In this document: positions 1,717-21,398 of the stretch, piece by piece
Position numbering within the stretch: position 1 is the first letter of the stretch
How the letters are laid out: each line of letters begins with the position of its first letter
Source of the DNA: an uncultured Pseudomonadota bacterium
Lineage (GTDB): Bacteria > Pseudomonadota > Gammaproteobacteria > Burkholderiales > SG8-39
Length of the DNA stretch: 64,000 nucleotides
Assembly (NCBI GenBank): GCA_903834835.1
Contig: CAILKO010000008.1
Location: 82,684-146,683 of the forward strand
Direction: 5' to 3'
Program-made: the position numbers and the translations under genes
Notes under the pieces: generated by a model
Seen by the model: only the letters and a program-made list of their open reading frames with translations
The model's database searches: none
What the model was told of the DNA's origin: nothing

Positions 1717-1946
1717 TGGTACCACAGGCCCGGAAATGGGGCGCACAGCAGGAGGGCGGCATTCGTTGCAGTACCGCGCACAGCGCGAAAACGGCCTGTC
1801 GCTTTTACACAACAACGCGGGTAACTTGGACGACGGGAACGGGTCGTTTCAGCGATTCTGTATTTCAAAATCTGACGAATCGATTAAGCTCAGCCGGAAC
1901 CGCTTATTAAAACCAAGCAAAAACAAACAAAAACCAAAGGAAGTTC

Positions 1947-4016
1947 GTGACTCGGCTCAGGCACAGGATTGTTGCCCAGGGTGCGTTTTTTGCGTTTCTA
2001 GGACGCCAAAAGCACTGTCTGGCACTGTTAATTGCCCTCGTCAGCGGCTTCAGCGGGGCAGTCTTCTCACAGGGTGTCGCGCCTGACGCGGGTCGCCTGC
2101 TTGAAACGACGCGCACGCCCGCGGCGCAGGCACCGGTCGCATCGCCCGAATTGAGCATCGGCACGCCGCTCAGCGCCGAGCCGCGTCGCGCCATCCCGCG
2201 CAAGCCGGGGCGCGAAGCGCCGGCGGCCCAGCCCGCGGAAGTCGCAGGCGCCTCGGGGCCATTCACCGAAAAGGACCTGCTCGGTCTCGTGAGCGGCATC
2301 CTGGGCAAGCAGGTCACCACCGAGGAATTGCGCGAACTGCGCGGAATCGCGCTTGCGATCGTTGCCTGCTACCGCAGCCCTGCCTGCGCGACCTTCGCCA
2401 AACAGATGCAGGCCGCGAGCGGCATCGGCGAAGACCTGAAGGGTGGCATTGCCGAGGCGCCCAAAGCGCCGCCCGCGCCGCGCTTCAAGGTCGCCGGGTT
2501 CAAGATCACCGGCATTACCGCATTCGAGGAAGAAAAGGTCGCAGCCGTCGTCAAGGAGTACGCCGGCCAGGAGCTGACGCTCGAGGAAATGAAGGACGCC
2601 GCCGCGCTGGTGGAGGAGTTCTATCGCGGCGAGGGGTATTTCCTCGCGCGGGCCTTCCTGCCGCAGCAGACGAGCAAGGACGGCGTGGTCGAGATCGCGG
2701 TGCTGGAAGGCAAGGTCGGCGACGTCAAGATCCAGGCGAGCGCCGATTCGCGTCTCAATTCGAGCGTGGCGGAAGGTCTGCTCGCGAGCATCCAGAGCGG
2801 CGCCCTGGTCGACGAGAAGTCGCTGGAGCGCGCCCTGCTGCTCCTGAGCGACATCCCCGGAACCCGGGTGCGGTCCACGCTCTCTCCGGGCGCCCAGGTC
2901 GGCGCGGCCGATCTGAGGGTGGAACTCGAGGACACGGGCGAGCGCGTCACCGGGTCGGTCGAAGCGGACAACTACGGCAGCAAACATGCCGGTCGCGACC
3001 GCTATGCGGTGAGCGCGAACCTCATCAACCCGAGCGGTTACGGCGATATCCTCGGCGTGCGGGTGATGCGCACCAGCGGCGAGGAAACCACCGCGATGGG
3101 TCGTCTGTCCTATACGCTGCCGGTCGGTCCCTGGGGCACGCGCCTGGGTGTCAACTATTCCGAGCTGTCCTACGCGGTCGGGGGCATCTTCTCCAACCTC
3201 CAGTCGAACGGCGAGGCCAAGGTCACCTCGCTCTTCGCGCAGCATCCCTTCATCCGCACGCGCAACCGCAACCTGTACGGATTCTTCGGTTTCGACCACA
3301 AGGATCTTCAGGACCGGTTCGACTCGATCCTCGTAGAGAACCCGAGGAAGAGCAACGCGATCATCCTGGGTGTGTCGGGCGACATGCGCGACAACATGAG
3401 CCCCGGTCCGCAGTCGCTTGAGGGGGGCGTGACGTCCTTCTCGGCGACGGTGGCGCGCGGCGAAATCGGCTTCCACAATGCCAATCAGGATGCGGCGGAC
3501 AAGGCGCTCACCGGTCGGCAGATCGGCGGTACCGCCTACAGCAAGTACAACTTCAGCATCTCGCGACTGCAGGGTCTGGCACCGGACTGGACGGCGCTGT
3601 TCAGCCTGAGCGGTCAGATGGCGTCCAAGAACCTCGACTCCTCCGAAAAGATTTCGATCGGCGGTCCGACGGGCGTTCGTGCCTATCCGACGGGAGAACT
3701 GCCGGCTGACCAGGCCTGGATCGCGAATGCGGAACTGCGCTACGCCTGGCGCGTCGAGAACATCCCGGGTGAATTCGGCGTGTTCGGTTTCTATGACTAT
3801 GCGCGTGCCGAACTGAACAAGAACCGCAAGGTCACGGACACCAACAACGCTCGCGAGATCTCGGGCTGGGGTCTGGGCCTCAACTGGGGCAAGCCCAGCG
3901 ATTTCACGGTTCGCCTGATGGCGGCATTCCGGCCGAACTCGAGCGACCTCCCGACAGCGGATCCGACCGGCAACACGCAGCGGCGCGTCTGGTTCCAGGC
4001 CACGAAGTGGTGGTAA
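1947..4016 (+). CDS. TpsB outer-membrane transporter of a two-partner secretion system (ShlB/FhaC/HecB family)
   Basis: 689-aa ORF with a GTG start preceded by AAAGGAAG. It has an N-terminal signal-like hydrophobic segment and a POTRA-type segment (FKITGITAFEE...FYRGEGYFLARAFLPQQTSKDGVVEIAVLEGKVGDVKI). The C-terminal part is rich in beta-barrel-like alternating residues and ends in aromatic residues (..VWFQATKWW). It lies directly upstream of a TPS-domain exoprotein. Confidence 0.85.
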   Translation: MTRLRHRIVAQGAFFAFLGRQKHCLALLIALVSGFSGAVFSQGVAPDAGRLLETTRTPAAQAPVASPELSIGTPLSAEPRRAIPRKPGREAPAAQPAEVAGASGPFTEKDLLGLVSGILGKQVTTEELRELRGIALAIVACYRSPACATFAKQMQAASGIGEDLKGGIAEAPKAPPAPRFKVAGFKITGITAFEEEKVAAVVKEYAGQELTLEEMKDAAALVEEFYRGEGYFLARAFLPQQTSKDGVVEIAVLEGKVGDVKIQASADSRLNSSVAEGLLASIQSGALVDEKSLERALLLLSDIPGTRVRSTLSPGAQVGAADLRVELEDTGERVTGSVEADNYGSKHAGRDRYAVSANLINPSGYGDILGVRVMRTSGEETTAMGRLSYTLPVGPWGTRLGVNYSELSYAVGGIFSNLQSNGEAKVTSLFAQHPFIRTRNRNLYGFFGFDHKDLQDRFDSILVENPRKSNAIILGVSGDMRDNMSPGPQSLEGGVTSFSATVARGEIGFHNANQDAADKALTGRQIGGTAYSKYNFSISRLQGLAPDWTALFSLSGQMASKNLDSSEKISIGGPTGVRAYPTGELPADQAWIANAELRYAWRVENIPGEFGVFGFYDYARAELNKNRKVTDTNNAREISGWGLGLNWGKPSDFTVRLMAAFRPNSSDLPTADPTGNTQRRVWFQATKWW

Positions 4017-4190
4017 GCCGAGGCGGATGAATACCGGTGAATTTGTTCACGGTCCAAGACAGAAAGAACACATCCTGCGCCGCGTTCGGTGCAGGATGCT
4101 TAACTTGCAGATCGCGTGCCGACTTCGGCGCGCGATGCCCAATCGGGCGCAGTCGTAGCAGCTGTGTGTGCAGCGCGAGGCCATAAAAAC

Positions 4191-7100
4191 ATGACAACCA
4201 ACGACGCCGGACTCTTCGGAAAATCGACCCTCGGGACACGCACGGGAGGCACAGGCCGGACCGGCCTCGCCCGCCTGCGCACCCCTCTGTGCAGGGCGAT
4301 CGTCTTCGCTGCAGCCTTCTCCTCGATCGCGCAGCCCGTGCTCGCGCAGGTCGCCGCGGGCACGCTCCCGACCGGCGCCACGGTGAACGCCGGCCAGGCG
4401 ACGATTTCCACCTCCGGCAGCAACATGCTCGTCAACCAGGGCACCGCGCGCGCGAGCCTCGACTGGCAGAGCTTCAGCATCGGTTCCGGTGCCTCCGTCG
4501 TGTTCAACCAGCCTTCGGCCTCCGCGATCGCGTTGAACCGCGTGGTCGGCAATGACGTCTCCCAGATCTTCGGCAGCCTGAGCGCCAATGGCCAGGTGTT
4601 CCTGATCAACCCCTCGGGCGTCGTGTTCGCGCCGGGTGCGCAGGTCAACGTGGGCGGCATCGTTGCGTCCGCGCTCAATATTTCGGATGCGGATTTCCTC
4701 GCCGGCCGCTATGTATTCAATGGCAATGGCGCAGGCAGCGTCGTGAACCAGGGCAGCATCATCACTTCTCCCGGCGGCTATGCGGCGCTCTTCGCGCGCA
4801 CTGCCGCGAACGAAGGTCTCATCGTCGCGCGCGCCGGCTCGGTCGCGATCGCCTCGGGCGAGCGCGTCACGATGGACTTCGTCGGTGACGGACTCATGAA
4901 TGTTGTGGTCGATCGCGCGGCGCTTGGCGCGCTCGCTGCCAACCGCGGCCTCATCCAGGCCGATGGCGGCCGCGTCATCATGACCGCCCGCGCGGCGGGC
5001 GATCTCGTCGGCACCGTGCTGAACCAGACGGGCGTCATCGAGGCGAAATCCGTCTCCACGCGCAATGGCGAGATCGTGCTGGATGGCGGTTCGACGGGTG
5101 TTACGTCCGTGGCGGGCAAGCTGGATGCCTCCGGCGGCGCGGGCCAGACCGGCGGCAGCGTGAGCGTGACCGGTCATATGGTCGGCCTCTACGGCGCCGA
5201 TGTGAACGCATCCGGCGGCGCCGGTGGCGGCAGCATCCTGATCGGTGGCGGCGCGCACGGCGCAAACCCGAATGTGGCGAACGCCTTCCGCACCTATGTG
5301 GACGCGGGCACGACGCTGAATGCCGATGCGGTGACGAGCGGCAACGGCGGCACCGTGGTGGTCTGGGCGGATGATGTCACGCGCTATTACGGTTCCCTCA
5401 GCGCGCGCGGCGGTGCCGAGGCCGGCAACGGCGGTTTTGCGGAAGTGTCGGGCAAGGAATCCCTGGTGTTCCGGGGCACGGCGGACCTGCGCGCGCCCAA
5501 CGGCGCGGTCGGCACGCTGCTGCTTGACCCGCGGAACATCGAGATCAAGACCGGGGGCACCGATGGGGTCGCGGCGAACGACACGTTCGCCGAGAACTCA
5601 TCGACCGATGCCACGATTCTGCCTGCCGATCTCGTTACGGCGCTCAATACTGCAAATGTGAGGCTTCAGGCGAATAACGACATTACGGTCACCAATGACG
5701 TGGATGCAAGCGGGGGTGGGAATTACGGGCTGACCCTGGAAGCTGGCCGCAGCATTGCGATCAACGCTGACGTTATTCTGAACGGCTTTTTCACCGCGAT
5801 CGCTAACACCGACGACATATTGCTTTCAGTCGCCGATCGGACGGTAAGTACGCAGGCGACCTTTTCGATGACCAATGGAAAGTCGATCAACACGAGCACC
5901 GCAGGCGCCGACATTACTATCCAGATGCAGCGCGGGGGCGGAAATGCCGGCTTCGATTCCGGCAATATCGAAATTTCTGCACTCAATGCTGGATCGGGCA
6001 ACGTCCTTATCAAACAGGACGGTCAGAGCCCGGGCAGTTCCATCGTTCGCACGGCCGCTTCGCTGATCACGGCGGCATCGGTCGCCCTGGATATTTCGAA
6101 CGCTGCCAACACCTCCGGCACCATCGGCGCAACAGGCGCCGGAAACGCGATTCGAGTCAGCACCCCAAACCTTGAGGCGCGTACCCAGAACGGGTCCGTT
6201 TTCCTGGAGTCGGTGAGCACGGTGAATATCGGCGGCGCTACGCTGGGGGGACTGACCGGGATCAACGCGGGCACAGGCAATGTCACGCTGGCCTCCAATG
6301 ACGCGGTCGCCCAGACCGAGGCGATCACCGCGAATACGCTGACCGTCAAGACACTTAAGGACGGCGGCGCGGCCATTGCGCTCACCGCTACGGCGAACGA
6401 GGTTGCAACGATCGACCTGCGCGCGCGCAATACCGCCGACAACGCGAATGCGGCAGGCGCGATCAGCTACACGGATTCCAGTGGTTTTGACGTCGCCGCA
6501 GCCCATACGACGAGTACGGTCACACTCGTCGGCGGCGGCGCGATCACGGATTCCGGGTTCCTCACGGGAACCACGCTGACGGCCACGACACTGAATAACG
6601 GTGGTGCGGCGATCACGCTGGACAATGCGTCCAATGAATTCACCACGGTCAGCCTGAACGCGCGGGATGCAGGGAATGCGAACAACGCGGCGGGCGCGAT
6701 CACCTATGTGGATGCGACGGGTTTCACCGCCTCGGCACAGGGTGCGAGCACGGTCAACCTGACCGCCACGACTAGCGACCTCACCGTGGGGGCGGGCAAT
6801 ATCGTCACCAATAGTGGCACCGTCACGCTGACGGCGTCCGAGGCAGCGGCCAAGATCATCGGCACGGGCAGCATCAGTACGGTCGGCGGTGCTACGGCCG
6901 GCGCGGCGGTGACGCTGAAGTCTGACAAGATGGATGTCGGCGCGATCAATTCGGGGACGGGTCTGGTTAGCCTCACGCCGAATGCCGATGCGCGTGCGAT
7001 TGAAGTCGGCACGGGCGCATCGGATGCGAGCGCGCTGGGAATCACGCACACGGAACTCGCAGGCATTACCACAACGGGTGGCGTCACGATTGGATCGGCG

Positions 7101-10100
7101 ACCAACACCGGCGGAATCACGGTCGTCGGCGCAGCCGACCAATCGGCAGGCGCAATCACTGGCGGCACCTTCACGCTGCGCAGCAACAGCGGGAACATTG
7201 CGATCAATGACGTGCTGACCAATGCGGTCGACACGACGCTGCAGACAACAAGCGGCAACATCAGCTTTGGCGGCACGGCAGGGGCCGTCGTTGCAGCAGG
7301 CAAGACGGTCACCCTTACCGCCACGGGCGGCAACATCGAAGGCGCCGGTGGCGCGTCGTTCAACAACGTCACGGCGTCGACCCTGAATGCAACGGCTTCC
7401 AGCGGTATCGGGAACACGAACGCGCTCGAGACCATAGTCTCCACGCTGAGCTTCACGAACACCACCAACAAGGTTCAGGTTACGAACAGTCTCGGAGGTG
7501 GTGTCACGGTTTCGGGCACGAATGCCGGGACTGGTTCCGTGAACATCGCGGAGACTCTGGGCAGCCTGACCGTCGGCGCAGCCGATATCGTCACGAACAG
7601 CGGTGCAGTCACACTGACGGCGTCCGGCGTGGGCCAGGCCATCATCTCTGCGGCGGGATCCGATGTCTCGACCATCGGCGGCGCGAGCGCAGGCGCGGCG
7701 GTGACGCTGAAGTCCGATAACCTGACCCTGGGAGGTCTCGTAACGGCCGGAACGGGCCTCGTGACCCTTCGACCGAATCTCGATGCCGTGAACATACAGG
7801 TTGGCGCGACGGCAACGGACGCTGCGGGGACGCTCGGTGTGGATGACGCCGAACTCGACAAGATCACGACCACGGGTGGTCTGACCATCGGATCAAGCAG
7901 CAACACGGGCACCATTACCGTAGTCGGCGCCGCCGATCAGGCGACTGGCGCGACAATCACGGGCGGAACCTTCACGCTGCGCAGTAACAGCGGGAACATT
8001 GCGGTCAATGACGTGCTGACCAACGCGGTTAATACCACGCTGCAGACCACGAGCGGCAACATCAGCTTTGGTGGCACGGCGGGGGCGGTCGTCGCGACAG
8101 GTAACACAGTCACGCTCACCGCCACGGCCGGCAATATCGAAGGTGATGGCGCGGCGTTCAATAATGTCACGGCATCGACCCTGAACGCCACCGCTTCCAG
8201 CGGGATCGGCAACACGAACGCGCTCGAGACCGTGGTCTCCACGCTTAGCTTTACCAACAGCACCAACAAAGTTCAGGTCAGCAACGCACTCGCCGGAGGT
8301 CTGACGGCATCGGGAACCAACGGGGCGGGCGCCGTGAATATCACGGAAACTGCGGGCAGCCTCGCAGTCGGATCGGCCGACATCGTGACCACTGGCGGCG
8401 CTGTCACGCTCGTCGCGTCCGGCGCAAACAAGCTCATTTCGAGCGCCTCGGGCGCGAATATCCAGACTTCGGGCGGCGCGGTCACGCTCCAGTCCGACAA
8501 CATCGATCTCGCAGGAACCATTGCCTCAGGCGCAGGCTTGGTCACGCTGACACCGAACGCCAACGCAGTCGCCATCCAGGTGGGTACGGGCGCAGTCGAC
8601 GATGTCGGCATACTCGGCATCACGAACACCGAACTCGACCGCATCACGACGACGGGCGGCGTGACCATCGGTTCGGCCACGAACACGGGCGGCATCACGG
8701 TTGTCGGCGCGGCAGATCAGGCGACCGGCGCAACGATCACGGGCGCGGGCGTCTTCACGCTGCTGTCCGACACCGGCAATATCGTCGTCAACAACGCGCT
8801 CAGCAATGCCGTCGATACCACGCTCACGACGAACAGCGGCAATATCAGCTTCGGCACGGCTGGCGCAATTACCGCCGCTACCAAAACCGTGACCCTGACG
8901 GCCACGGCAGGCACCATCGAGGGCCATGCCACGGCGCTCACGAACGTGACCGCAGGCACGCTGAATGCAACGGCACGTGACGGCATCGGCACGAGCAACC
9001 GTCTCGAGACGGCCGTATCAACCCTGAGCTTTGCGAACACGAACAATGATGTGCAGGTCACGAATTCGCTCGCGGGCGGCGTGACGGTATCGGGCACGAA
9101 TGCGGGTGTCGGTGCTGTGAACCTTACTGAAACCCTGGGCAATCTGACCGTTGGCGGGGACATCGTCACGGATAGCGGTGCGGTCACCCTGACTGCGTCC
9201 GGGGCGAACAAGGCCATCATCACCACCGCGGCAACCGACGTAAAGACGGATAGCGTCGGCGCCGGCGCGGCAGTGACCTTCGTCGCGGACAATATGACGC
9301 TGAACACAACGGGGACGATCATCGCGGGCAGCGGGCTCGTGACACTGCGTCCCAACGCAAACAACGTCGCAATACAGGTCGGAGCCGGCGCAACCGATGC
9401 GGCCGGTGTTCTCGCAATAACCGATACCGAACTCGACCAGATCACGACCACCGGCGGTATCACCATCGGATCGTCGACCAATACCGGTGGAATCACGGTT
9501 GTGGGCGCCGCAGATCAAGCGACGGGGGCCACCATCGCTGGAGGCACCTTCACGCTCCTCAGCAATAGCGGAACGATCAATGTAAACGCAACGCTGACCA
9601 ACGCGATCGACACGACCCTGCAGACGACGAGTGGCAATATCGTGTTCGGCGCTGCGGGCAGCGTGGATGCTGGCACCAATGTCGTCAATCTCACGGCGAC
9701 AGGGGGCAGCATTTCGGGCAATGCGGCGACATTCAATAACGTTACGGCAGCGACGCTGAATGCCACCGCCTCAAGCGGCATTGGCAACACAAACGCGCTC
9801 GAGACTGCGGTGACCAACCTGAATTTCGCGAACACGACAAATGCGGTTCAGTTCACGAACAGCGTTGGAGGCGCTGTCACGGTCTCGGGTACGAACGCCG
9901 GCACGGGCGCGGTGAACATCACGGAAACGACGGGCGATCTCGTCGTCGGCGCAGCCGACATCGTCACCAACAGCGGTGCAGTGACGCTGACCAATACGGC
10001 AAATGCATCGTCCATCATCTCCGCCGCAGGCTCCGATATCAGCACCACGGGCGGGGCGACCGCCGGTGCAGCGGTTACGCTGGTCGCGGACAACATGGAC

Positions 10101-13100
10101 CTTGTCGGGGCGACCACCTCGGGTACCGCGACGACGACGCTTCGGCAATTTACAAACGGCACGCAGATTGATCTCGGTGGACCAGGCGCCAATGGCACTG
10201 TCCTCGGTATTTCGTCCCCTGAGCTGGACACGATTACCGCGGGCATGATCAAGATCGGCAACTCGAATACGGGCGACGTCACGGTCACCTCGGCGATCGC
10301 CCCCACGGGAACAGGCACGCTCTCCATCCAGAGCGGAACGACGATTTCGCAGAACAGCAACCTGGCCACGATCACCGAAACGAATCTCGCGCTCCGCGCG
10401 GTGACGGGGATCACGCTGACGGCTAACGGCAGCAGCACCGCTGGCGAAGGCAATACCGTAGATAACCTCGCGGCGATCACTTCGGGTGCCGCAGCGATCA
10501 ACTTCCGCAACAACGCAACCATGACTGTCGGCACGATCGACAGCGTCGATGGCGTAAGCACGGCGAACGGCGCGATCGGCATCACGGTCGCGGGCAATTC
10601 CGCCGGCGCAACCAATCTGCTCGTCGACCGCGTGCGCGCGGGTACGACAACTCCGGGCGGAACGATCACCCTGACCGCGTCGAACGCCGGTGCGGGCGCG
10701 GCGAATATCTTCGAAGCGCCGCTCGGCGGTGGTACGGGCGATGTCGCAATCGATATTCAGACCTCCGGTTCGATGGTGCTGGATGCCAAGACCGCGATCG
10801 GTCAGCCCGTGGGAACGGCAGCCGAGGCGATCGAAATCTCGGCCGGCACGCTCACGCCGAATAGCGGCGCAGGCGGCGTATACCTGACACAGACAGGCGA
10901 TGTCACGCTCGGCGCATTCACGACCAACGGCGATTTCGCCTTTACCGCGATCGGTACCGTGACGGTTGGCGGCGCGATGCGCGTGGACGGCAACACCACG
11001 CTGAAGGCGCAGGGTACGAGCGCCGACGTGATCATCTCGAATGCGATCACACGTGTGAATGACGCTGCGGGCAGCTTCACGATGCAGGCGGACCGCAATA
11101 TCGTGTTCAACACGGCCAGCACGAATCCCGGAACGACGGTAGGTTCCTTCACAGCCCAGAACGCTACGGGTAGCGGTGCGGGCGCAACGGCAGTCACCTT
11201 CAATGCGGACCGTGATGCGCTCGGCGGCGGTGCCATCTACGTGAATGCGGGCAGTACGATCGACAGCAACAATGGCGCAGTGATTCTGGGTGGCGGCCTC
11301 AGTCCGTCCACGGTGGCTGCAATCGGTAATGCCGCAACATCGGGTACCAATGCCATCCTCGGTACTTCAGGCAACTCGATGGTCAATGGCATCACGATCG
11401 AGGGCCAGATCCTCGCAGGCACCGGCAACGTAACGCTGACCGGGCAATCCAAGGTGACCAGCGCGAACGTCGCAGGCGTGGTGATCCGCGACGGCGGCAA
11501 TGCGGGTGTGCCGACTCAAATACTGACGACAACCGGCAACATCACGATCAACGGTGTGGGTGACCAGGGCGCGGGTAACACGCAAGGCGTGCTGATCGAC
11601 GGCGTGAGCGGCACGGCAACAACGACCGCTACGGTCCAGACGACCTCGGGCACCATTGCGATCACGGGGTCGCATAACAGCCCGGTGACGTTGGCTTCGA
11701 ACGCGGGCGTGCTGGTGACCGGGGGTGCGGTTATCAGCAGCACCTCGAATTCGAATACGGCAGGTGCTGTGACGCTGACAGGTACGGGCGGCGCAGGTTC
11801 CGGGAACTTCGACAATGGCGTCGTAATCACGGGCACCAGTACCGTAGTTTCCGTAGACGGCGCGGCGCTGAACCTGGTGGGCACGGGCGGCGGCGGCGGC
11901 GCCACGGGTGGCGCTTCGAATGTCGGCGTGCAGATCGCCGGCGCGGCAGATGTGAAGTCCATCGGTTCGGGCAAGGTCACGCTGACCGGCACGGGTGGCG
12001 CCACCAATGGCGGCGGCAACCTGGGTATCGAAGTCACCGGCACCAATACCCAGTTGCGCAGCACGTCCACGGGCGCCACGGCACTCCGTGTGGATCTCGT
12101 CGGTACGGGCGGTGCAGGCAGCGGCGCCGCAGACGGCGGTATCCTGATCGACAGCAGTGCGCAGGTTTCAACCGCAACCGGCAATATCGCCTTCACGGGT
12201 ACGGGCGGGGGCGGCGGCGGGGCCGATGCGAGCAACGTAGGTGTGACGGTTGCCAACAGCGCGAAGGTCACGACGACAAGCTCGGGCAGTGTCGCCATCA
12301 CGGGCACTGGCGGGGCGTCCAATGGCGGAACCAACTACGGTATCGCCGTGCTGAGCGCAGGGCAGGTCGAAAGCACGCAGACTGTGGCCGGAGCGGGAAC
12401 GATAACCTTCACGGGCACGGGCGGTTCGGGAACCGGCAACACGGACGCCGGTATCCTCGTGAACGGCTCGGGCACCAAGGTGACCACCACGGTCGGCAAC
12501 ATCACCTTTACCGGCACGGGCGGTGCGGACACCACGGGCACAACGAACCACGGCATCGTCGTCGCGAACAGCGCGATCGTCGAAACCAAGGGCGTCGCGC
12601 AGGTAACGCTCGATGGCACGGGTTCCGTTACCGCGAACGGCGGCACGAACTACGGCATCCTCGTGGACAGCAGCGGAACCGTGCGCAGCACCGGGTCCAC
12701 GCTTACCGGCACCTCGGGCAAGATCACGCTGATCGGCAGCGGTGGTCTGGGCACCGGCTCCGATGACGGCGGCATACGCATCGCGAACGCCGGTTCGGTA
12801 CGGACCAAGGACGCGGAAATCGAGTTCCAGGGTTTCGGTGGCACCGATACGACCGGAGGCGCGAGCTACGGCATCGTGCTCGATGGCGGCATCGTCTCAA
12901 CGACCGGCGACGGTTCGATCCTGCTGACCGGAGTGGGCGGCGCGGCGGCAGGCGGCGCCAATACGGGTATCAGCACACTTAACAGCGCACTGATCGAGAG
13001 TACCGCCGCGAACGGCGTCAACCCGGCAGGCACGATCACCCTTGCGGGTACGGGCGGCGCGGCGGATGCCGGACCGGGCGATCACGGTATAGCCATCACC

Positions 13101-16100
13101 GGAACGAGCACGGTCAGTTCCAAGGACGGCGCGATCGCCATCACCGGCATCGGCGGGCCGCTTGCGACCACCACCGGCGGATCGAACAACGTCGGGGTCA
13201 TCGTCTATACCGGGTCGGAAGTGAAGAGCACGGGGCTCGCCGTCATCGGTATCACCGGCACGGGCGGGGACGGCACGAACCAGAACCGCGGCGTGCAGAT
13301 CGACGTCGGCGGCAAGGTCACGGGCACCAGCACCAGCACCGGCAATATCACGATTACCGGTACGGGTACGGGCACGGGCACGGACAACTACGGCGTGCAC
13401 ATCACGTCGAACACCGCGGCCGCTTCGGTAATTTCCTCGGCGGGCACGGGTGCGATCAGCATCACCGGTACCGGTTCCTCGACCGGCACGAGCGACAACG
13501 TCGGCGTCGCGATCTCCAACACGACGGCGGGTGTCACCGGCTCGAACGCGGGTTCGCAGATCACGACGGCGCAGACCGGCGGCATCACCATCACCGGTAC
13601 GGGCCGCGGCACGACCAGCAACAACTACGGCGTGAGCATTGGCGGGGCGGCGCTCGTTTCGACCGCAGGCAACGGAACTGTCGCAATCACCGGTACGGGC
13701 AGCGCAACCGGCACCTCGGGCAACGCAGGCATCCTGCTCGCCAGCGACGCGGACATCACGTCGACCAAGTCCACGGCGGGCGCGGGCACGCTGACACTCA
13801 CCGGTACGGGCGGTGCGGGCAGCACGACGGACAATGCCGGTATCGTCATAACCGGCGCCGGTACGAGCATCGTTTCCTCAGTGGGCGCGATCGCCGCCAC
13901 CGGTACGGGCGCAGGCACGGGTGCCTCGGGCTACGGCGTGGCCCTTGCAAGCGGCGCGAAGATCCAGTCGACGAATACGGCGACGATCGGCGTAACCGGC
14001 ACGGGCGCTAACACCGCAGGCAACCTGCAGCAGGGCGTGCGCGTCGATGGCGCCACGATCACCACCGTCTCCGGCGACGTCACACTCGCGGGTGTGGCAA
14101 ACGGCTCGGGCACGGGCAGCGCTGGCGTGCTGATCGCGAATACAGGCAAGGTGGAATCGACAGGTTCCGCCGACCTCTTCATCACGGGCACGGGCGCCAA
14201 CGGCGCACCGGGCATCGCGAGCAATGACGGCACGACCACGGTCGGCACGAACACCATCGGCAGTGCGACGATGACCGGCGACGTGCTGCTGCGCAGCCTC
14301 GCCGGCACCGGCATCGCATTGACCAACGTGAACATCGTGACCCAGGCCGCAACCCCGGGTGCGGATGTGACGATCAATCTGGTCGGTGGGGGTAATGCCG
14401 TCCAGGTGACCAATTCGGGCAGCATCGTCGCCAGCGGCCTGCGCATCATCAACGACAGCACGACGAGCGCAGTCACGCTGGATTCGACCAGCAACAACGT
14501 CAACTTCCTCGCGGCCAACCTGACCGGGCTTGCCAGCACGCTCAGCTACACGGATTCGACGGGCTACGCGATCTCGACGCTCACCACGGACCATGACGCG
14601 AATTCGGGCAATGCGGACACAAGCACGAGCGGCCTGACCGTAGGTACGGTCGGGACCACGGCCAACACGATCCAGCTCACCGCAGGAGCCGCCGTCACGC
14701 AGAGCACCGCGTCGGACAACGTCACGACGGATGGGTTGAATCTGCTTGGCGCAGGCAACTACACGCTGACCAACATCGGCAACAACATCACGGTGCTGAA
14801 CGGCAACGTGACGACCTCGGGCACGAGCTTCATCAAGTTCACTGATACGAACAGCGTTGCAATCCAGCGTGTCGTCACGCCGCAGGCGGCGGGCAACAAC
14901 GTCACGATCACGGCGGGCGCGGGCGGCAGCGGCAGTATCACGGACTTCACGCCGGCCGGAACCGAAGGTTCCGGGAACGAGAACATCGTCACCCACACCG
15001 CCATCCTCAGCGCAGCGAGCGGCACGATCGGCGCCGCGACCGCCGATCCGGATCTCGACACGGATGCAGTGGTGCTGCGTGCGGCCACCACCGGCGCTGG
15101 CAATGGCATCTACATCACGGAAACCAACGACGTCCAGCTGGGCGACGCGACGAGCGGCATCAGTGCGGCCGGCGATCTTGTGATTTCGACCACGGCAGGT
15201 TCGATCACTACGACCACGACCGCCGCGAGCAGCATCGCCTTCGGCGGCAACGCGACGATCTCGGCCGGCGGCACAACCTCCGACCTGACGATCTCGACGA
15301 ACGTCGTCGGTACAGGCTCGGCGGGCAATACGCTGCGGCTGAACGCGGACAACAGTATCTTCGTCAATACCGGCGCGGATGTCAGCACCACCAACGCGAT
15401 GAACGTGGTGTTCAATTCCGACTTCGACGGCAGCGGTGCGGGCCGCATCAAGATCGGCAGCACGGCGGGCGGCGACGCAGGCAGCGTGATCACGAGCAAC
15501 GGCGGCAACATCACGCTCGGCGGTGGCAACGTCAACCCGGCGCTGAATGCTGCGCTCGGCACCTCGACGACCACCGCAGGCGTGGAACTCAGCAATGGCG
15601 CGCAACTGCAGGCCTCGACCGGGAATATCTCGATCCGCGGTCAGAGCGCGTCGGGCACCACGACTGTAGCCGGCGGCGGGGTCAACGTTCTGGGTGGCAG
15701 CATCGTCCAGACGACCACGGGCAGCATCACGATCGACGGCAAGGTCGATACCGCAGCCGGAACCTCGGCGGGCGTGCAGCTTGATGGCACGAACACCAAA
15801 GTGACCTCCGCGACCGGGAACATCGGGATCACGGGTTCGCACCTGGGTACGGCGACGGGTACGTTCAACCGCGGTATCGTCATGACGACCAACGCGGCGG
15901 TCGAGACCACCGGCTCGGGCACGGTGACGCTCACCGGCACGGGCGGCACGGGCGCGAGCGCGACCGACAACTACGGTATCCAGATCGCGAGCGGTGCGGA
16001 CGTCATCTCCTCGCAGGCAACGGCGGGCGCCGGCACGCTGACCCTCACGGGTACCGCGGCGGCCACGACGGGCGCGAGCAACGTGAACCTCGGCGTCTTC

Positions 16101-19100
16101 GTCACGGGCGCGGGCACGACGGTCACCTCGAAGGTGGGCGATGTCGCCATCACCGGTACCAGCAACGCGACCGGCACCGGCCAGTACAACATCGGCGTGC
16201 TTGTGGCGAACGATGCGATCGTCTCGACGACCGGCGTCGCAAACGTGACGGTCACCGGTACGGGCGCAGCAAGCACCGGCAAGAACGACTACGGCGTCGC
16301 GATTCTCGCTGACGGCAAGATCCGCAGCACGGTGGCGACCGGCAGCCTCGCACAGGGCACGATCACGATCAGCGGTACGGCGTCCGGTTCCGGCAATTCG
16401 GATGGCGGCGTCGCGCTTGGCAATGCGGACGGTCTTGTCACCGCCTCCGCTACAGGCGGCGACATCTCGTCCGTGGACGGCGCGATCAGCGTCACCGGTA
16501 TCAGCAACAGCACGGGTCTGAATGCCTACGGTATCGGCGCGAAGGAGAATTCCTCCATCACCTCGACCGGCATCGCGACCACCAGCCTGATCGGTACGGG
16601 CGGCACGGGCGCCTCCGGCACGAACTACGGCGTCTGGGTCCTCGATACTTCCGACGTCGTCAGTTCGGGTTCCGGCGCCACGACAATCACCGGCACGGGC
16701 CGCGGAACGGGCAACAGCAATACGGGTGTGGTGATCTCCGATGCGGGGACGACCGTCACGACGGTTTCCGGTCTGCTCACGATTGGCGGCACCAGCAACG
16801 CAACCGGTAGCGGCACAACCAACCGCGGCGTGTTGATCACCACGGCGGCCGATGTCATCAGCACCGGCTCGGGCAATATCGTCATCACGGGTACGGGCGC
16901 CACGACAGCCGGCAACAGCAACGAAGGTCTGACGATCGAATCCTCGGGCACCTCGGTGGACAGCCAGGGCACCGGCCTCATTACGCTGACCGGTACCGGC
17001 AACGGTACGGCCTCCGGCAACGTCGGCGTGGTCGTCAACACGACGGCACTCGTCACCTCTGTGACCGGCAACATCGGTATCACGGGCACCAGCGCGGCGA
17101 CGGGTACTGGATCGACCAACCACGGCGTGGATATCCTGGGCGGCGGCGATGTGACCAGCACCGGCGCGGCGAAGATCAACATCGTCGGCACGGGTGCGGC
17201 GACGAGCGGCTCGGGAAGCTACGGCGTGCTCGTGACCGGTACCGGATCCTCGGTGCAGAGCACTGCGAACAACGCGGCAGCGACCATCACGATCAGCGGT
17301 GACGGCTTCGGTACGGGTGGCTCGGCGAGTGGTGTCGTAGTCGAGAGCAGTGCGCTCGTGACGTCGCTTACCGGCAACATCGGCATTACCGGCGACAGCA
17401 AGGTCACGACGGGCTCCGGCAACAATAACTACGGCGTACATGTTGCAAGTGCAGCCGATGTCACGACAACCGGGGCGGCGACGATCACGCTGACGGGTTC
17501 TGGCGGCACGACTTCCGGCACGAACAACGAGGGTGTGTATATCCAGGGCACCGGCACGCCGGGACAGACGACCGTGACGAGCAGCGCAACGACCGGCGGT
17601 ACGATCACGATCGGCGGCACGGCGCGTGGCTCGGGCGGTACAGAGCGCGGCGTGGTGGTCGATGCGGGCGGTCTGGTTCAGTCGAAGGACGGCGCGATCG
17701 CGATCACCGGCACCAGCAGCGCATCGGCGGGTAACAACAACGTCGGTATCGTCGTTGCAAGCGGCGCGGACGTGATCAGCACGGGCATTGCGACGATCAA
17801 TCTGACGGGTACGGGTGCAGCAACGACCGGAACCGACAACTACGGTGTCTACCTGGCGGGTAATGCTTCTGCAGGCGGCACCTCGATCGACAGCCAGGCC
17901 AGTTCCTTGGGCGGCGCGATCACCATCGGCGGCACCGGGCAGGGTACGGGCGGCACCGAACGCGGCGTGTTCATGGACAGCTCCGCGCGCGTGACATCGG
18001 TGAGCGGCAACATCGGGATCACGGGCACCAGCTCCGCGACCGGCGGCAGCAACAACTCGGGTGTCGTCATGGCCACCAACGCCGATGTCATCACCACAGG
18101 TACGGCAAACGTCTCGATCACCGGCAACGGCGGGAACGTGGCCGCGGGCAGCAATCAGTACGGCATACAACTGCTCAGTGGCGCGGATGTGAAGTCGACC
18201 GGCAGTGCGGTCGGTTCGGGCACGATCCTGCTCGACGGCAACGCCGGCGCCGGCACCGACGACAACATTGGTGTGTACCTGACCGACATCGGTACGAGCG
18301 TCACCTCCGTACGCGGCAACATTACGCTTCTCGGTGATGCGGCCGTCGGCGGGACGCCGGGTACGGGCAACCGAGGGGTGGCGATCGAAAACACCGCTCT
18401 GGTTTCCTCGACCGCCCAGGCGAATATCGTTGTCACGGGAAATGGTGCGGCGGGTACGGCTGCCAACTACGGTATCCAGCTCGCGAACGGCGCGGACATC
18501 ACATCGTCCAGTACCGGGACCATCACGCTCACGGGTACCGGCGGCGCTGGCAGCGGAAATAACAACTTCGGTGTCGAAATCCAGAGCACGGGTACGACCC
18601 TCACCGCGGTGAACGGCAACGTGACGATCACGGGCACGGGTGGCGGAAGCGCGGCGACGACCAACAACTACGGCGTGAACGTGGAAGGCGCAGCCCTCAT
18701 CGAGACGAGCGGCACCGCGAGCATCGGGATTACCGGTACGGGCGGCACGACCACCGGCGGCAGCAACTACGGTGTCCGGGTTTCCGACGCAAGCACGACG
18801 ATCAGGAGCACGGCCACCGGCGGCAATATCACGATCACGGGCGATGGCAAGGGTTCGGGCGCATCCGAAACCGGCATCCGCGTCACGACCAGCGCGCTCG
18901 TCACGACAGTGGGCGCGGGCAACCTCGCCCTGGTCGGTACGGGTTCGACGACCGGCACGGGTACCAACTACGGTATCCAGGTTGACGGCGGGGCGGACAT
19001 CACGTCGACGAAGGCCACGGCGACGGCCGGGACGATTACGCTGACGGGGACGGGTGGCGGAACGACCGGCAGTAACAACTACGGTGTGTTCCTGACCGGA

Positions 19101-21398: not shown

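Follow-up and report, generated by a model that had tools for sequence, protein, structure and literature searches.

A two-partner secretion locus of a lake-water Burkholderiales bacterium encoding a 5,735-residue exoprotein whose repeats lie mostly outside curated families

The stretch of DNA analyzed here (the window, 64,000 nucleotides of contig CAILKO010000008.1 from an uncultured Pseudomonadota bacterium of the Burkholderiales, assembly GCA_903834835.1) contains between positions 1947 and 21398 two co-oriented neighbouring genes, tpsB and tpsA, which an earlier note had described as a two-partner secretion (TPS) locus with an exoprotein built from nested repeats. The two genes are as follows, with lengths in amino acids (aa).

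1947..4016, + strand: tpsB, Omp85-type outer-membrane transporter, 689 aa counted from GTG
4191..21398, + strand: tpsA, exoprotein, 5,735 aa when counted from ATG 4191 (the form on record as P0003)

The order, tpsB then tpsA, is the one proposed in the note. The stop of tpsB is at 4016 and the start of tpsA at either 4116 or 4191, the frame begun at GTG 4116 giving a product of 5,760 aa. Pfam assigned to TpsB a POTRA_2 domain (aa 180-255, E 6.8e-19) and the ShlB domain of the ShlB/FhaC/HecB barrel (aa 320-646, E 3.4e-29). A single POTRA domain was seen by Pfam, and the 64-aa gap before the barrel is space for a second; the motif FYDYA is present at aa 615. The N-terminal part of TpsA comprises a leader, a secretion domain and a further conserved region.

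4191..4346, + strand: leader of TpsA, about 52 aa long; read from the letters, its hydrophobic core is AIVFAAAFSSIA and it is probably cleaved behind VLA (VLA-Q)
4359..5099, + strand: TPS secretion domain, aa 82-328, which holds an NPSG motif (LINPSGVVF)
5313..5675, + strand: post-TPS region (GNGGFAEVSGK...GTLLLDP), aa 400-520 by BLAST, for which there is no Pfam or NCBIfam model

The TPS domain, which the note had placed at about 4360-5140 and called ordinary, matches PF05860 with an E-value of 1.9e-38 (133 bits versus a cut-off of 33.5) and also TIGR01901 (E 3.8e-24, 84 bits versus a cut-off of 29), while the leader has no Pfam match to ESPR. Judged by these features, tpsB-tpsA is a genuine two-partner secretion pair.

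TpsA has a molecular mass of 542 kDa and an isoelectric point of 4.1, and its composition is dominated by glycine (17.9%), threonine (17.2%), alanine (13%) and serine (9%). The charged residues D, E, K and R together make up 8.2%, and there are only two cysteines, at aa 18 and aa 59, both N-terminal of the predicted leader cleavage site; the scarcity of charge and the confinement of cysteine to the signal-peptide region had both been remarked on earlier. The note's suggestion that this is among the largest proteins of the genome proved correct, as tpsA is the longest open frame of the 3.37 Mb, 74-contig assembly; the runner-up is another TpsA, of 4,284 aa. TpsA proteins weigh 100-650 kDa and all are beta-helical with imperfect repeats (PMC5422565), so that at 542 kDa the size of this protein is not by itself exceptional. 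What sets it apart is the body behind the post-TPS region, which consists of modules of about 263 aa, followed by two arrays of a much shorter unit, each preceded by a pre-array segment and closed by a cap.

6231..7031, + strand: diverged module copy, aa 706-972 (phmmer E 4.4e-16 versus module 1)
7038..10187, + strand: four full modules of 258-266 aa, aa 975-2024, with starts at 7038, 7836, 8616 and 9414
10188..10496, + strand: partial further module (aa 1651-1885 versus aa 1916-2127, 44% identity)
10497..11654, + strand: pre-array segment 1, paralogous to aa 3660-3930
11655..14252, + strand: array 1, about 25 units of 33-34 aa, approximately aa 2514-3379 by the unit hidden Markov model (HMM)
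14271..14885, + strand: cap block 1 (MTGDVLLRSLAGTG...), located by the position of the cap motif and paralogous to cap 2
14886..15725, + strand: pre-array segment 2, 33% identical to pre-array 1
15726..20114, + strand: array 2, about 41 units, approximately aa 3871-5333 by the unit HMM
20115..20729, + strand: cap block 2 (MTGNILMRSLSGTG...), with the cap motif MTG[DN][IV]L[LM]RSL

The unit HMM found 64 units at an independent E-value below 0.01, distributed over the two arrays with a median period of 34 aa. Their consensus, ITITGTGGAGTGGNNYGVVVDSGADVTSTGTGN, is 33-34 aa long and strongly conserved at a few positions: G17 in 100% of units, G5 in 97%, V/I18 in 96%, G7 in 80%, G12 in 78%, T6 in 70% and N15 in 69%. 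Threonine is the commonest residue at positions 2, 4 and 6 (44%, 64% and 70%, respectively). Matches to a relaxed version of the core motif number 43 in the protein, compared with a mean of 0.8 and a maximum of 5 in 500 shuffles. Array 2 has further internal order, namely a super-repeat of three units (about 103 aa) and a younger five-unit duplication (18561-19328 versus 19074-19841, aa 4816-5071 versus 4987-5242) whose copies are 68% identical.

The larger repeats were defined by comparing TpsA with itself, using BLAST of the protein in chunks. The full modules are 60-70% identical to one another (self-BLAST E-values down to 1e-108, phmmer E-values of 1e-82 to 1e-144). The two array regions are also related beyond the arrays proper, since aa 2251-2541 at the pre-array end match aa 3660-3930 at 33% identity and aa 3308-3504 at the cap end match aa 5261-5441 at 41% identity. 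The alignments at both ends indicate that pre-array, array and cap are duplicated together as one block, and that this event is an old one. Too great a divergence between the copies, and a module period of more than 500 nt, explain why TRF found no tandem repeats in the DNA. Opposite the arrays there is an antisense open frame of 2,007 aa (13878-19901, - strand), most probably a side effect of the G+C-rich, repetitive coding sequence rather than a gene.

This architecture agrees in most respects with the one read earlier from the letters. The four modules of about 265 aa that had been placed at 7037-10205 were recovered at 7038-10187, with one diverged and one partial copy added to them. The two arrays were also found again, whereas the unit length of about 30 aa that had been given for them did not hold, the period being 33-34 aa. 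The cap motif with which each array had been said to end starts at 14271 and 20115 (the note had 20116), and the duplication it was taken to mark includes the pre-array segments too.

Comparison with the domain libraries left about 80% of the 542-kDa protein outside any curated family. Apart from the TPS domain, the only family with matches was DUF5649 (PF18886), in three short stretches.

20604..20822, + strand: DUF5649 repeats, aa 5497-5569 (E 2.9e-12, 47.1 bits versus a cut-off of 25)
6453-6653, + strand: weak DUF5649 match inside the diverged module copy, aa 780-846 (E 2.2e-6, 28.3 bits)
10869-11045, + strand: DUF5649-like stretch in pre-array 1, aa 2252-2310 (E 3.2e-5, 24.6 bits, just below the cut-off)

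Together these stretches account for less than 4% of TpsA. In PMC8286594, DUF5649 is classed among the stalk domains of fibrillar adhesin-like proteins. With NCBIfam (E <= 0.1) nothing was found in TpsA other than the TPS domain. The FHA-type repeats PF05594 and PF13332 were matched nowhere in the protein at E <= 0.01, nor in the arrays, one module, cap 1 and a pre-array segment at E <= 10. When the arrays, one module, a cap and a spacer were compared with all of Pfam at E <= 10, the result was noise and one sub-threshold DUF5649 match. The autotransporter repeat PATR was likewise absent (PF12951 without a match to the arrays at E <= 10, TIGR02601 of NCBIfam without one at E <= 0.1), and the unit profile matched no sequence in the PDB, the best E-value being 0.55. 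The earlier view that the TGTGG unit is not of the FHA type is thus borne out: the units gave no FHA score, and no characterised close homologue was found.

The TGTGG unit is, at the level of sequence, not peculiar to this TpsA. A profile of the three-unit super-repeat, searched versus 1.84 billion cluster representatives, matches at least 2,212 protein clusters (50% identity) at E <= 1e-3, of which 1,299 are matched at E <= 1e-10 and 400 at E <= 1e-30, and these are spread over several phyla (Planctomycetes, Verrucomicrobiota, Bacteroidota and Proteobacteria). The motif GTGGxGxxxNxGV recurs in an alignment of 32 unit-bearing proteins, in none of which does a Pfam family cover the repeat. Eight of these 32 have a TPS domain by Pfam, and others have Big_9, cadherin-like, FG-GAP, HYR, MBG_2, type IX secretion system (T9SS) sorting or Planctomycete domains. 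In a larger set of about 170 unit-bearing proteins compared by BLAST, the TPS domain is present in about 60 and the post-TPS region in about 65, some of the latter without a TPS match. Carriers of the post-TPS region that lack a detectable TPS domain include an Alienimonas protein named 'tail fiber' (P0008), P0173 and P0177. The sources of unit-bearing proteins are Planctomycetes, Verrucomicrobiota, Bacteroidota, a Rickettsiales metagenome-assembled genome (MAG) and Ramlibacter, and the proteins are named 'hypothetical', 'filamentous hemagglutinin N-terminal domain-containing', 'T9SS type B sorting domain-containing', 'tail fiber' or 'HYR'. Closer to home the unit is carried by four of 41 genomes searched (this genome and 40 of its family and order). 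The 263-aa module is much rarer than the unit, with homologues in six other giant proteins among 5.8 billion sequences when only proteins of comparable length were considered.

The nearest relative of TpsA is P0004, a metagenome TpsA from Logan of 4,404 aa, which is 46% identical over the array-2 region searched. It sits behind a tpsB on its metagenome contig, in the same tpsB-tpsA order, and is collinear with TpsA from the TPS domain to the tail, with one array, one cap and no modules. A shorter TpsA, of 1,994 aa with 18 units, is present in genome G014, and its TPS domain is 59.5% identical to that of TpsA. In another genus of the same family (G001; L115/L116, C26:12997-30345) we observed a TpsA of 5,783 aa whose TPS domain is 36% identical. 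This protein has two cap-like blocks and no TGTGG units, so a similar length has been reached with a different repeat content. The series of 1,994, 4,404 and 5,783 aa shows modular gain and loss among these TpsAs. Other giant proteins without names of their own, P0006, Alienimonas chondri P0008, Ramlibacter P0014 and the Lutibacter T9SS protein P0170, share with TpsA and P0004 the 33-34 aa unit G-T-G-G-x(4-6)-N-x-G-V; however, the overall plan is shared by P0004 only, the others having T9SS, Ig-like, cadherin-like, HYR or FG-GAP partners or signals.

Three more TPS-domain genes were observed in the same genome, at C54:105574.. (4,284 aa, 28% glycine), C63:1588-2292 (- strand) and C72:87789... 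Those on C63 and C72 run off the ends of their contigs, which indicates that the assembly has probably lost parts of two more giant genes; the C72 gene also has TGTGG units.

The earlier proposal that TpsA is a long beta-helical fibre was supported by structure prediction, as two segments were predicted to be all-beta solenoids. For the last units of array 2 and cap 2 (aa 5041-5480), AlphaFold2, supplied with an alignment of TpsA's own paralogous segments and P0004, gave a model with a predicted local distance difference test (pLDDT) score of 81.4 and a predicted template modelling (pTM) score of 0.88, in which there are exactly three strands per 33-34 aa unit and the cap prolongs the beta structure with shorter coils. 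A model of two modules (pLDDT 80.2) is all beta as well, with a short helix at an ELxxI motif and a low-confidence junction. The top Foldseek matches to both models in the PDB are all beta-helix proteins, namely pertactin, Ag43, EtpA, tailspikes and PL6 lyases, none of them significant. The predicted fold class is accordingly beta-solenoid, with no close solved relative. In the array model each TGTGG unit is predicted to form one three-stranded solenoid coil, which would be held by the turn glycines G5 and G17, the asparagine at position 15 and alternating I/V/L residues. If each coil adds 4.8 A, the 64 of them would extend for approximately 30 nm, and we infer a length of roughly 100-140 nm for the whole of TpsA.

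An alternative is that TpsA is a secreted beta-helical fibre with a role other than adhesion to cells or surfaces, as a matrix or sheath scaffold or in the binding of ice, minerals or polysaccharides. If beta-helix strands alternate in and out here as they usually do, the predicted ITxTGTG strand would put a regular threonine-rich face on the outside. The 17% threonine content, the threonines at unit positions 2, 4 and 6, the lake-water source and the lack of an adhesive domain are in keeping with this alternative, and the weak Foldseek hits of the module model include a beta-helical bacterial antifreeze protein, 3p4g (E 5). We nevertheless consider a role of this kind unlikely, based on the facts that the 3p4g match is far from significant, that threonine-rich faces are common in beta-helices unrelated to ice and that the unit is found in bacteria of many habitats.

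The C-terminal end of TpsA differs from all that precedes it.

21066..21395, + strand: C-terminal tail from PPPP to RDGGMRLPAGL...RRRGG, 9% proline and 17% charged residues

These last 110 aa are proline-rich and then charged, unlike the rest of the protein in composition. By BLAST the tail is matched in P0004 alone, at 46% identity, and a short motif near the C-terminus, R/N-x-G-G/A-x-R-L/M-P-x-G, recurs close to the C-termini of P0004 and Ramlibacter P0014 and nowhere else among the 178 proteins compared. The C-terminal 120 aa had no credible match in 400 genomes of the same class. Possible roles of the tail are those of a tether, a periplasmic plug or a tip.

Among the TpsA proteins of very large size, many are CdiA (PMC5422565). 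The tail was accordingly weighed in light of contact-dependent inhibition (CDI), in which a CdiB/CdiA-like pair would use the rod to present a C-terminal toxin to neighbouring cells. The great size of TpsA, the sharply different composition of its last 110 aa and the conservation of these residues in P0004 are what might be seen with such a protein. However, TpsA has no FHA-1 or FHA-2, no PT-VENN (VENN boundary) and no toxin family by Pfam or NCBIfam, and its tail is short and without relatives in the 400 genomes of the class. No immunity gene lies downstream of tpsA, and the 93 bp between its stop and the convergent decarboxylase gene leave no room for one. We therefore rejected the CDI reading as very unlikely and infer that TpsA is not a toxin carrier. 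A candidate modification, N-glycosylation of the HMW1C/EtpC-like type, was also dropped: N-x-S/T sequons are depleted in TpsA (89 versus 110 +/- 8.5 by chance) and there is no glycosyltransferase gene in the locus.

The genes on either side are housekeeping genes: a class-III aminotransferase (419-1762, - strand) on one flank, and on the other an Orn/Lys/Arg decarboxylase (21492-23666, - strand) followed by MurJ and isoleucyl-tRNA synthetase (IleRS). The best match of IleRS, at 75%, is to a Burkholderiales MAG, which puts the genome in an uncultured lineage of that order. In three of five related genera checked (G003, G004 and G007) the decarboxylase gene directly borders the aminotransferase gene on the same strand, at most 85 bp away, while here they are separated by the tpsBA pair, about 19.7 kb (1763-21491) on the opposite strand. 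As the flanking genes adjoin in these relatives, we interpret the tpsBA locus as an insertion, one that amounts to 0.6% of the genome. No sign of an integrase, a tRNA or anomalous G+C was noted at the insertion borders, which were not searched for repeats. A strong terminator-like hairpin (1685-1708, - strand; 10 pairs, 7 of them G-C, with a T-rich tail) was observed at the edge of the insertion, just upstream of the start of the aminotransferase alignment with relatives.

Since the assembly is a MAG of 74 contigs, 89% complete, in which two other TPS genes end at contig ends, we considered whether tpsA might be a dead gene or an artefact, that is, short-read repeats misjoined into a chance long frame in G+C-rich DNA. 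Such repeats do yield long spurious frames, the 2,007-aa antisense frame being an example. The DNA copies within tpsA, though, are only 60-85% identical, and for that reason the assembly is not ambiguous. In addition, the locus is covered without a mismatch, module and unit borders included, by Logan contigs of four metagenome runs on lake water; this support is limited because the MAG itself probably derives from these runs and no piece exceeds 2 kb. TpsA further has recognised domains at both ends, is collinear with P0004 and has a counterpart of 5,783 aa in a related genus. On this evidence an artefact seems to us barely credible. At 19349-19631, inside the younger 513-nt duplication, one contig in each of the four runs differs at about 10 clustered positions, which is either a cross-placed paralogous copy or strain variation.

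The most instructive comparisons are with characterised secretion systems. Like the prototype TPS adhesin of Bordetella, FhaB/FHA with FhaC, the present system has an Omp85-type TpsB with a POTRA domain and a TpsA with an N-terminal TPS domain, a long repetitive body, predicted to be beta-helical in TpsA, and an acidic composition rich in glycine, alanine and threonine. FhaB has a C-terminal proline-rich stretch and then a short distinct end, to which the TpsA tail bears a likeness. In contrast to FhaB, TpsA lacks Fil_haemagg (PF05594) and Fil_haemagg_2 (PF13332), has predicted three-strand coils of 33-34 aa instead of FHA repeats of 19-20 aa and has no identifiable large prodomain, and its gene follows tpsB. 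The secreted beta-helical adhesins EtpA of enterotoxigenic E. coli (with EtpB) and HMW1 of Haemophilus (with HMW1B) have large repeat modules, as TpsA does, and EtpA (8vbb) is among the best, non-significant, Foldseek matches to both models; unlike those systems, ours has no glycosyltransferase gene at the locus and no sequence similarity to them past the TPS domain. CdiA/CdiB share with it a very large TpsA and a TpsB partner, but differ in the FHA-1/FHA-2, PT-VENN, toxin and immunity gene that are missing here. The passengers of autotransporters such as pertactin and Ag43, and the PATR repeat (PF12951), are composed, as is predicted for the TpsA arrays, of three-stranded beta-solenoid coils of about 30 aa. 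With pertactin (1dab) the array model has its best Foldseek match (E 0.0096, TM-score about 0.2); the secretion route of autotransporters differs.

Based on these lines of evidence we consider that the locus probably encodes a type Vb system that exports a beta-helical fibre of about 540 kDa in which beta-solenoid segments follow one another. Going by what is established for TPS systems in general (PMC5422565), TpsA would be taken by its long leader to Sec and across the inner membrane, its unfolded TPS domain would dock onto the POTRA domains of TpsB, and the chain would thread through the TpsB barrel and fold outside the cell, coil after coil, into a beta-helix. Sequence and modelling show the order of the segments: the TPS cap, the post-TPS region, the modules of about 263 aa (five to six of them), two successive sets of pre-array, array and cap, and the short proline-rich charged tail. 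The resulting fibre, at the cell surface or shed, would serve in attachment or aggregation. On the evolutionary side, tpsBA would have been inserted between its neighbour genes and TpsA would have grown by tandem duplication at three scales.

Several observations count against this interpretation. In TpsB the L6-type motif is VRAY (GVRAYP, aa 577), with alanine replacing the glycine of VRGY/F. The AlphaFold2 alignments were shallow and consisted mostly of TpsA's own paralogous repeats, and Foldseek found nothing significant in the PDB for either model (best E 0.0096, TM-score at most 0.38). The long-range order of the locus is that of one short-read assembly, with Logan pieces of no more than 2 kb, and no RNA sequencing runs were found for this source, an uncultured MAG. 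Finally, no adhesive or ligand-binding domain was recognised in TpsA by Pfam; the term 'adhesin' is therefore used by analogy, and a role in adhesion or aggregation is the least certain part of the proposal.

Broader in scope is the possibility that the 33-34 aa ITxTGTGG-x(4-6)-N-x-G-V coil represents an undescribed family of beta-solenoid repeats, present in several phyla and lying outside Pfam, NCBIfam and solved structures. A TpsA subfamily with the post-TPS element (GGF-A/V-E-V/T-SGK...LLDP) may use this coil by preference, and T9SS cargo and giant Planctomycete proteins may have recruited it too. We regard this proposal as evenly balanced between right and wrong. If it is true, TpsA would make a good type specimen, its arrays having been duplicated en bloc, each with its own cap, to give a segmented rod.

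The secretion logic of the locus is that of ordinary TPS cargo and leaves the current view of the TPS mechanism unchanged, while the body of the protein is made of repeat families for which there is no curated library entry or solved structure. The locus thus shows how much of the TPS family, which is well understood in a few pathogens, stays unannotated in environmental bacteria. More than two thousand clusters from at least four phyla contain the 33-aa coil, behind at least three secretion routes, and naming both repeat families would provide labels for thousands of 'hypothetical' giant surface proteins; the regular three-stranded coil is also a target for structural biology. For the bacterium itself, the commitment of about 19.7 kb of inserted DNA to one presumed surface fibre indicates that attachment or aggregation is under strong selection in lake water.

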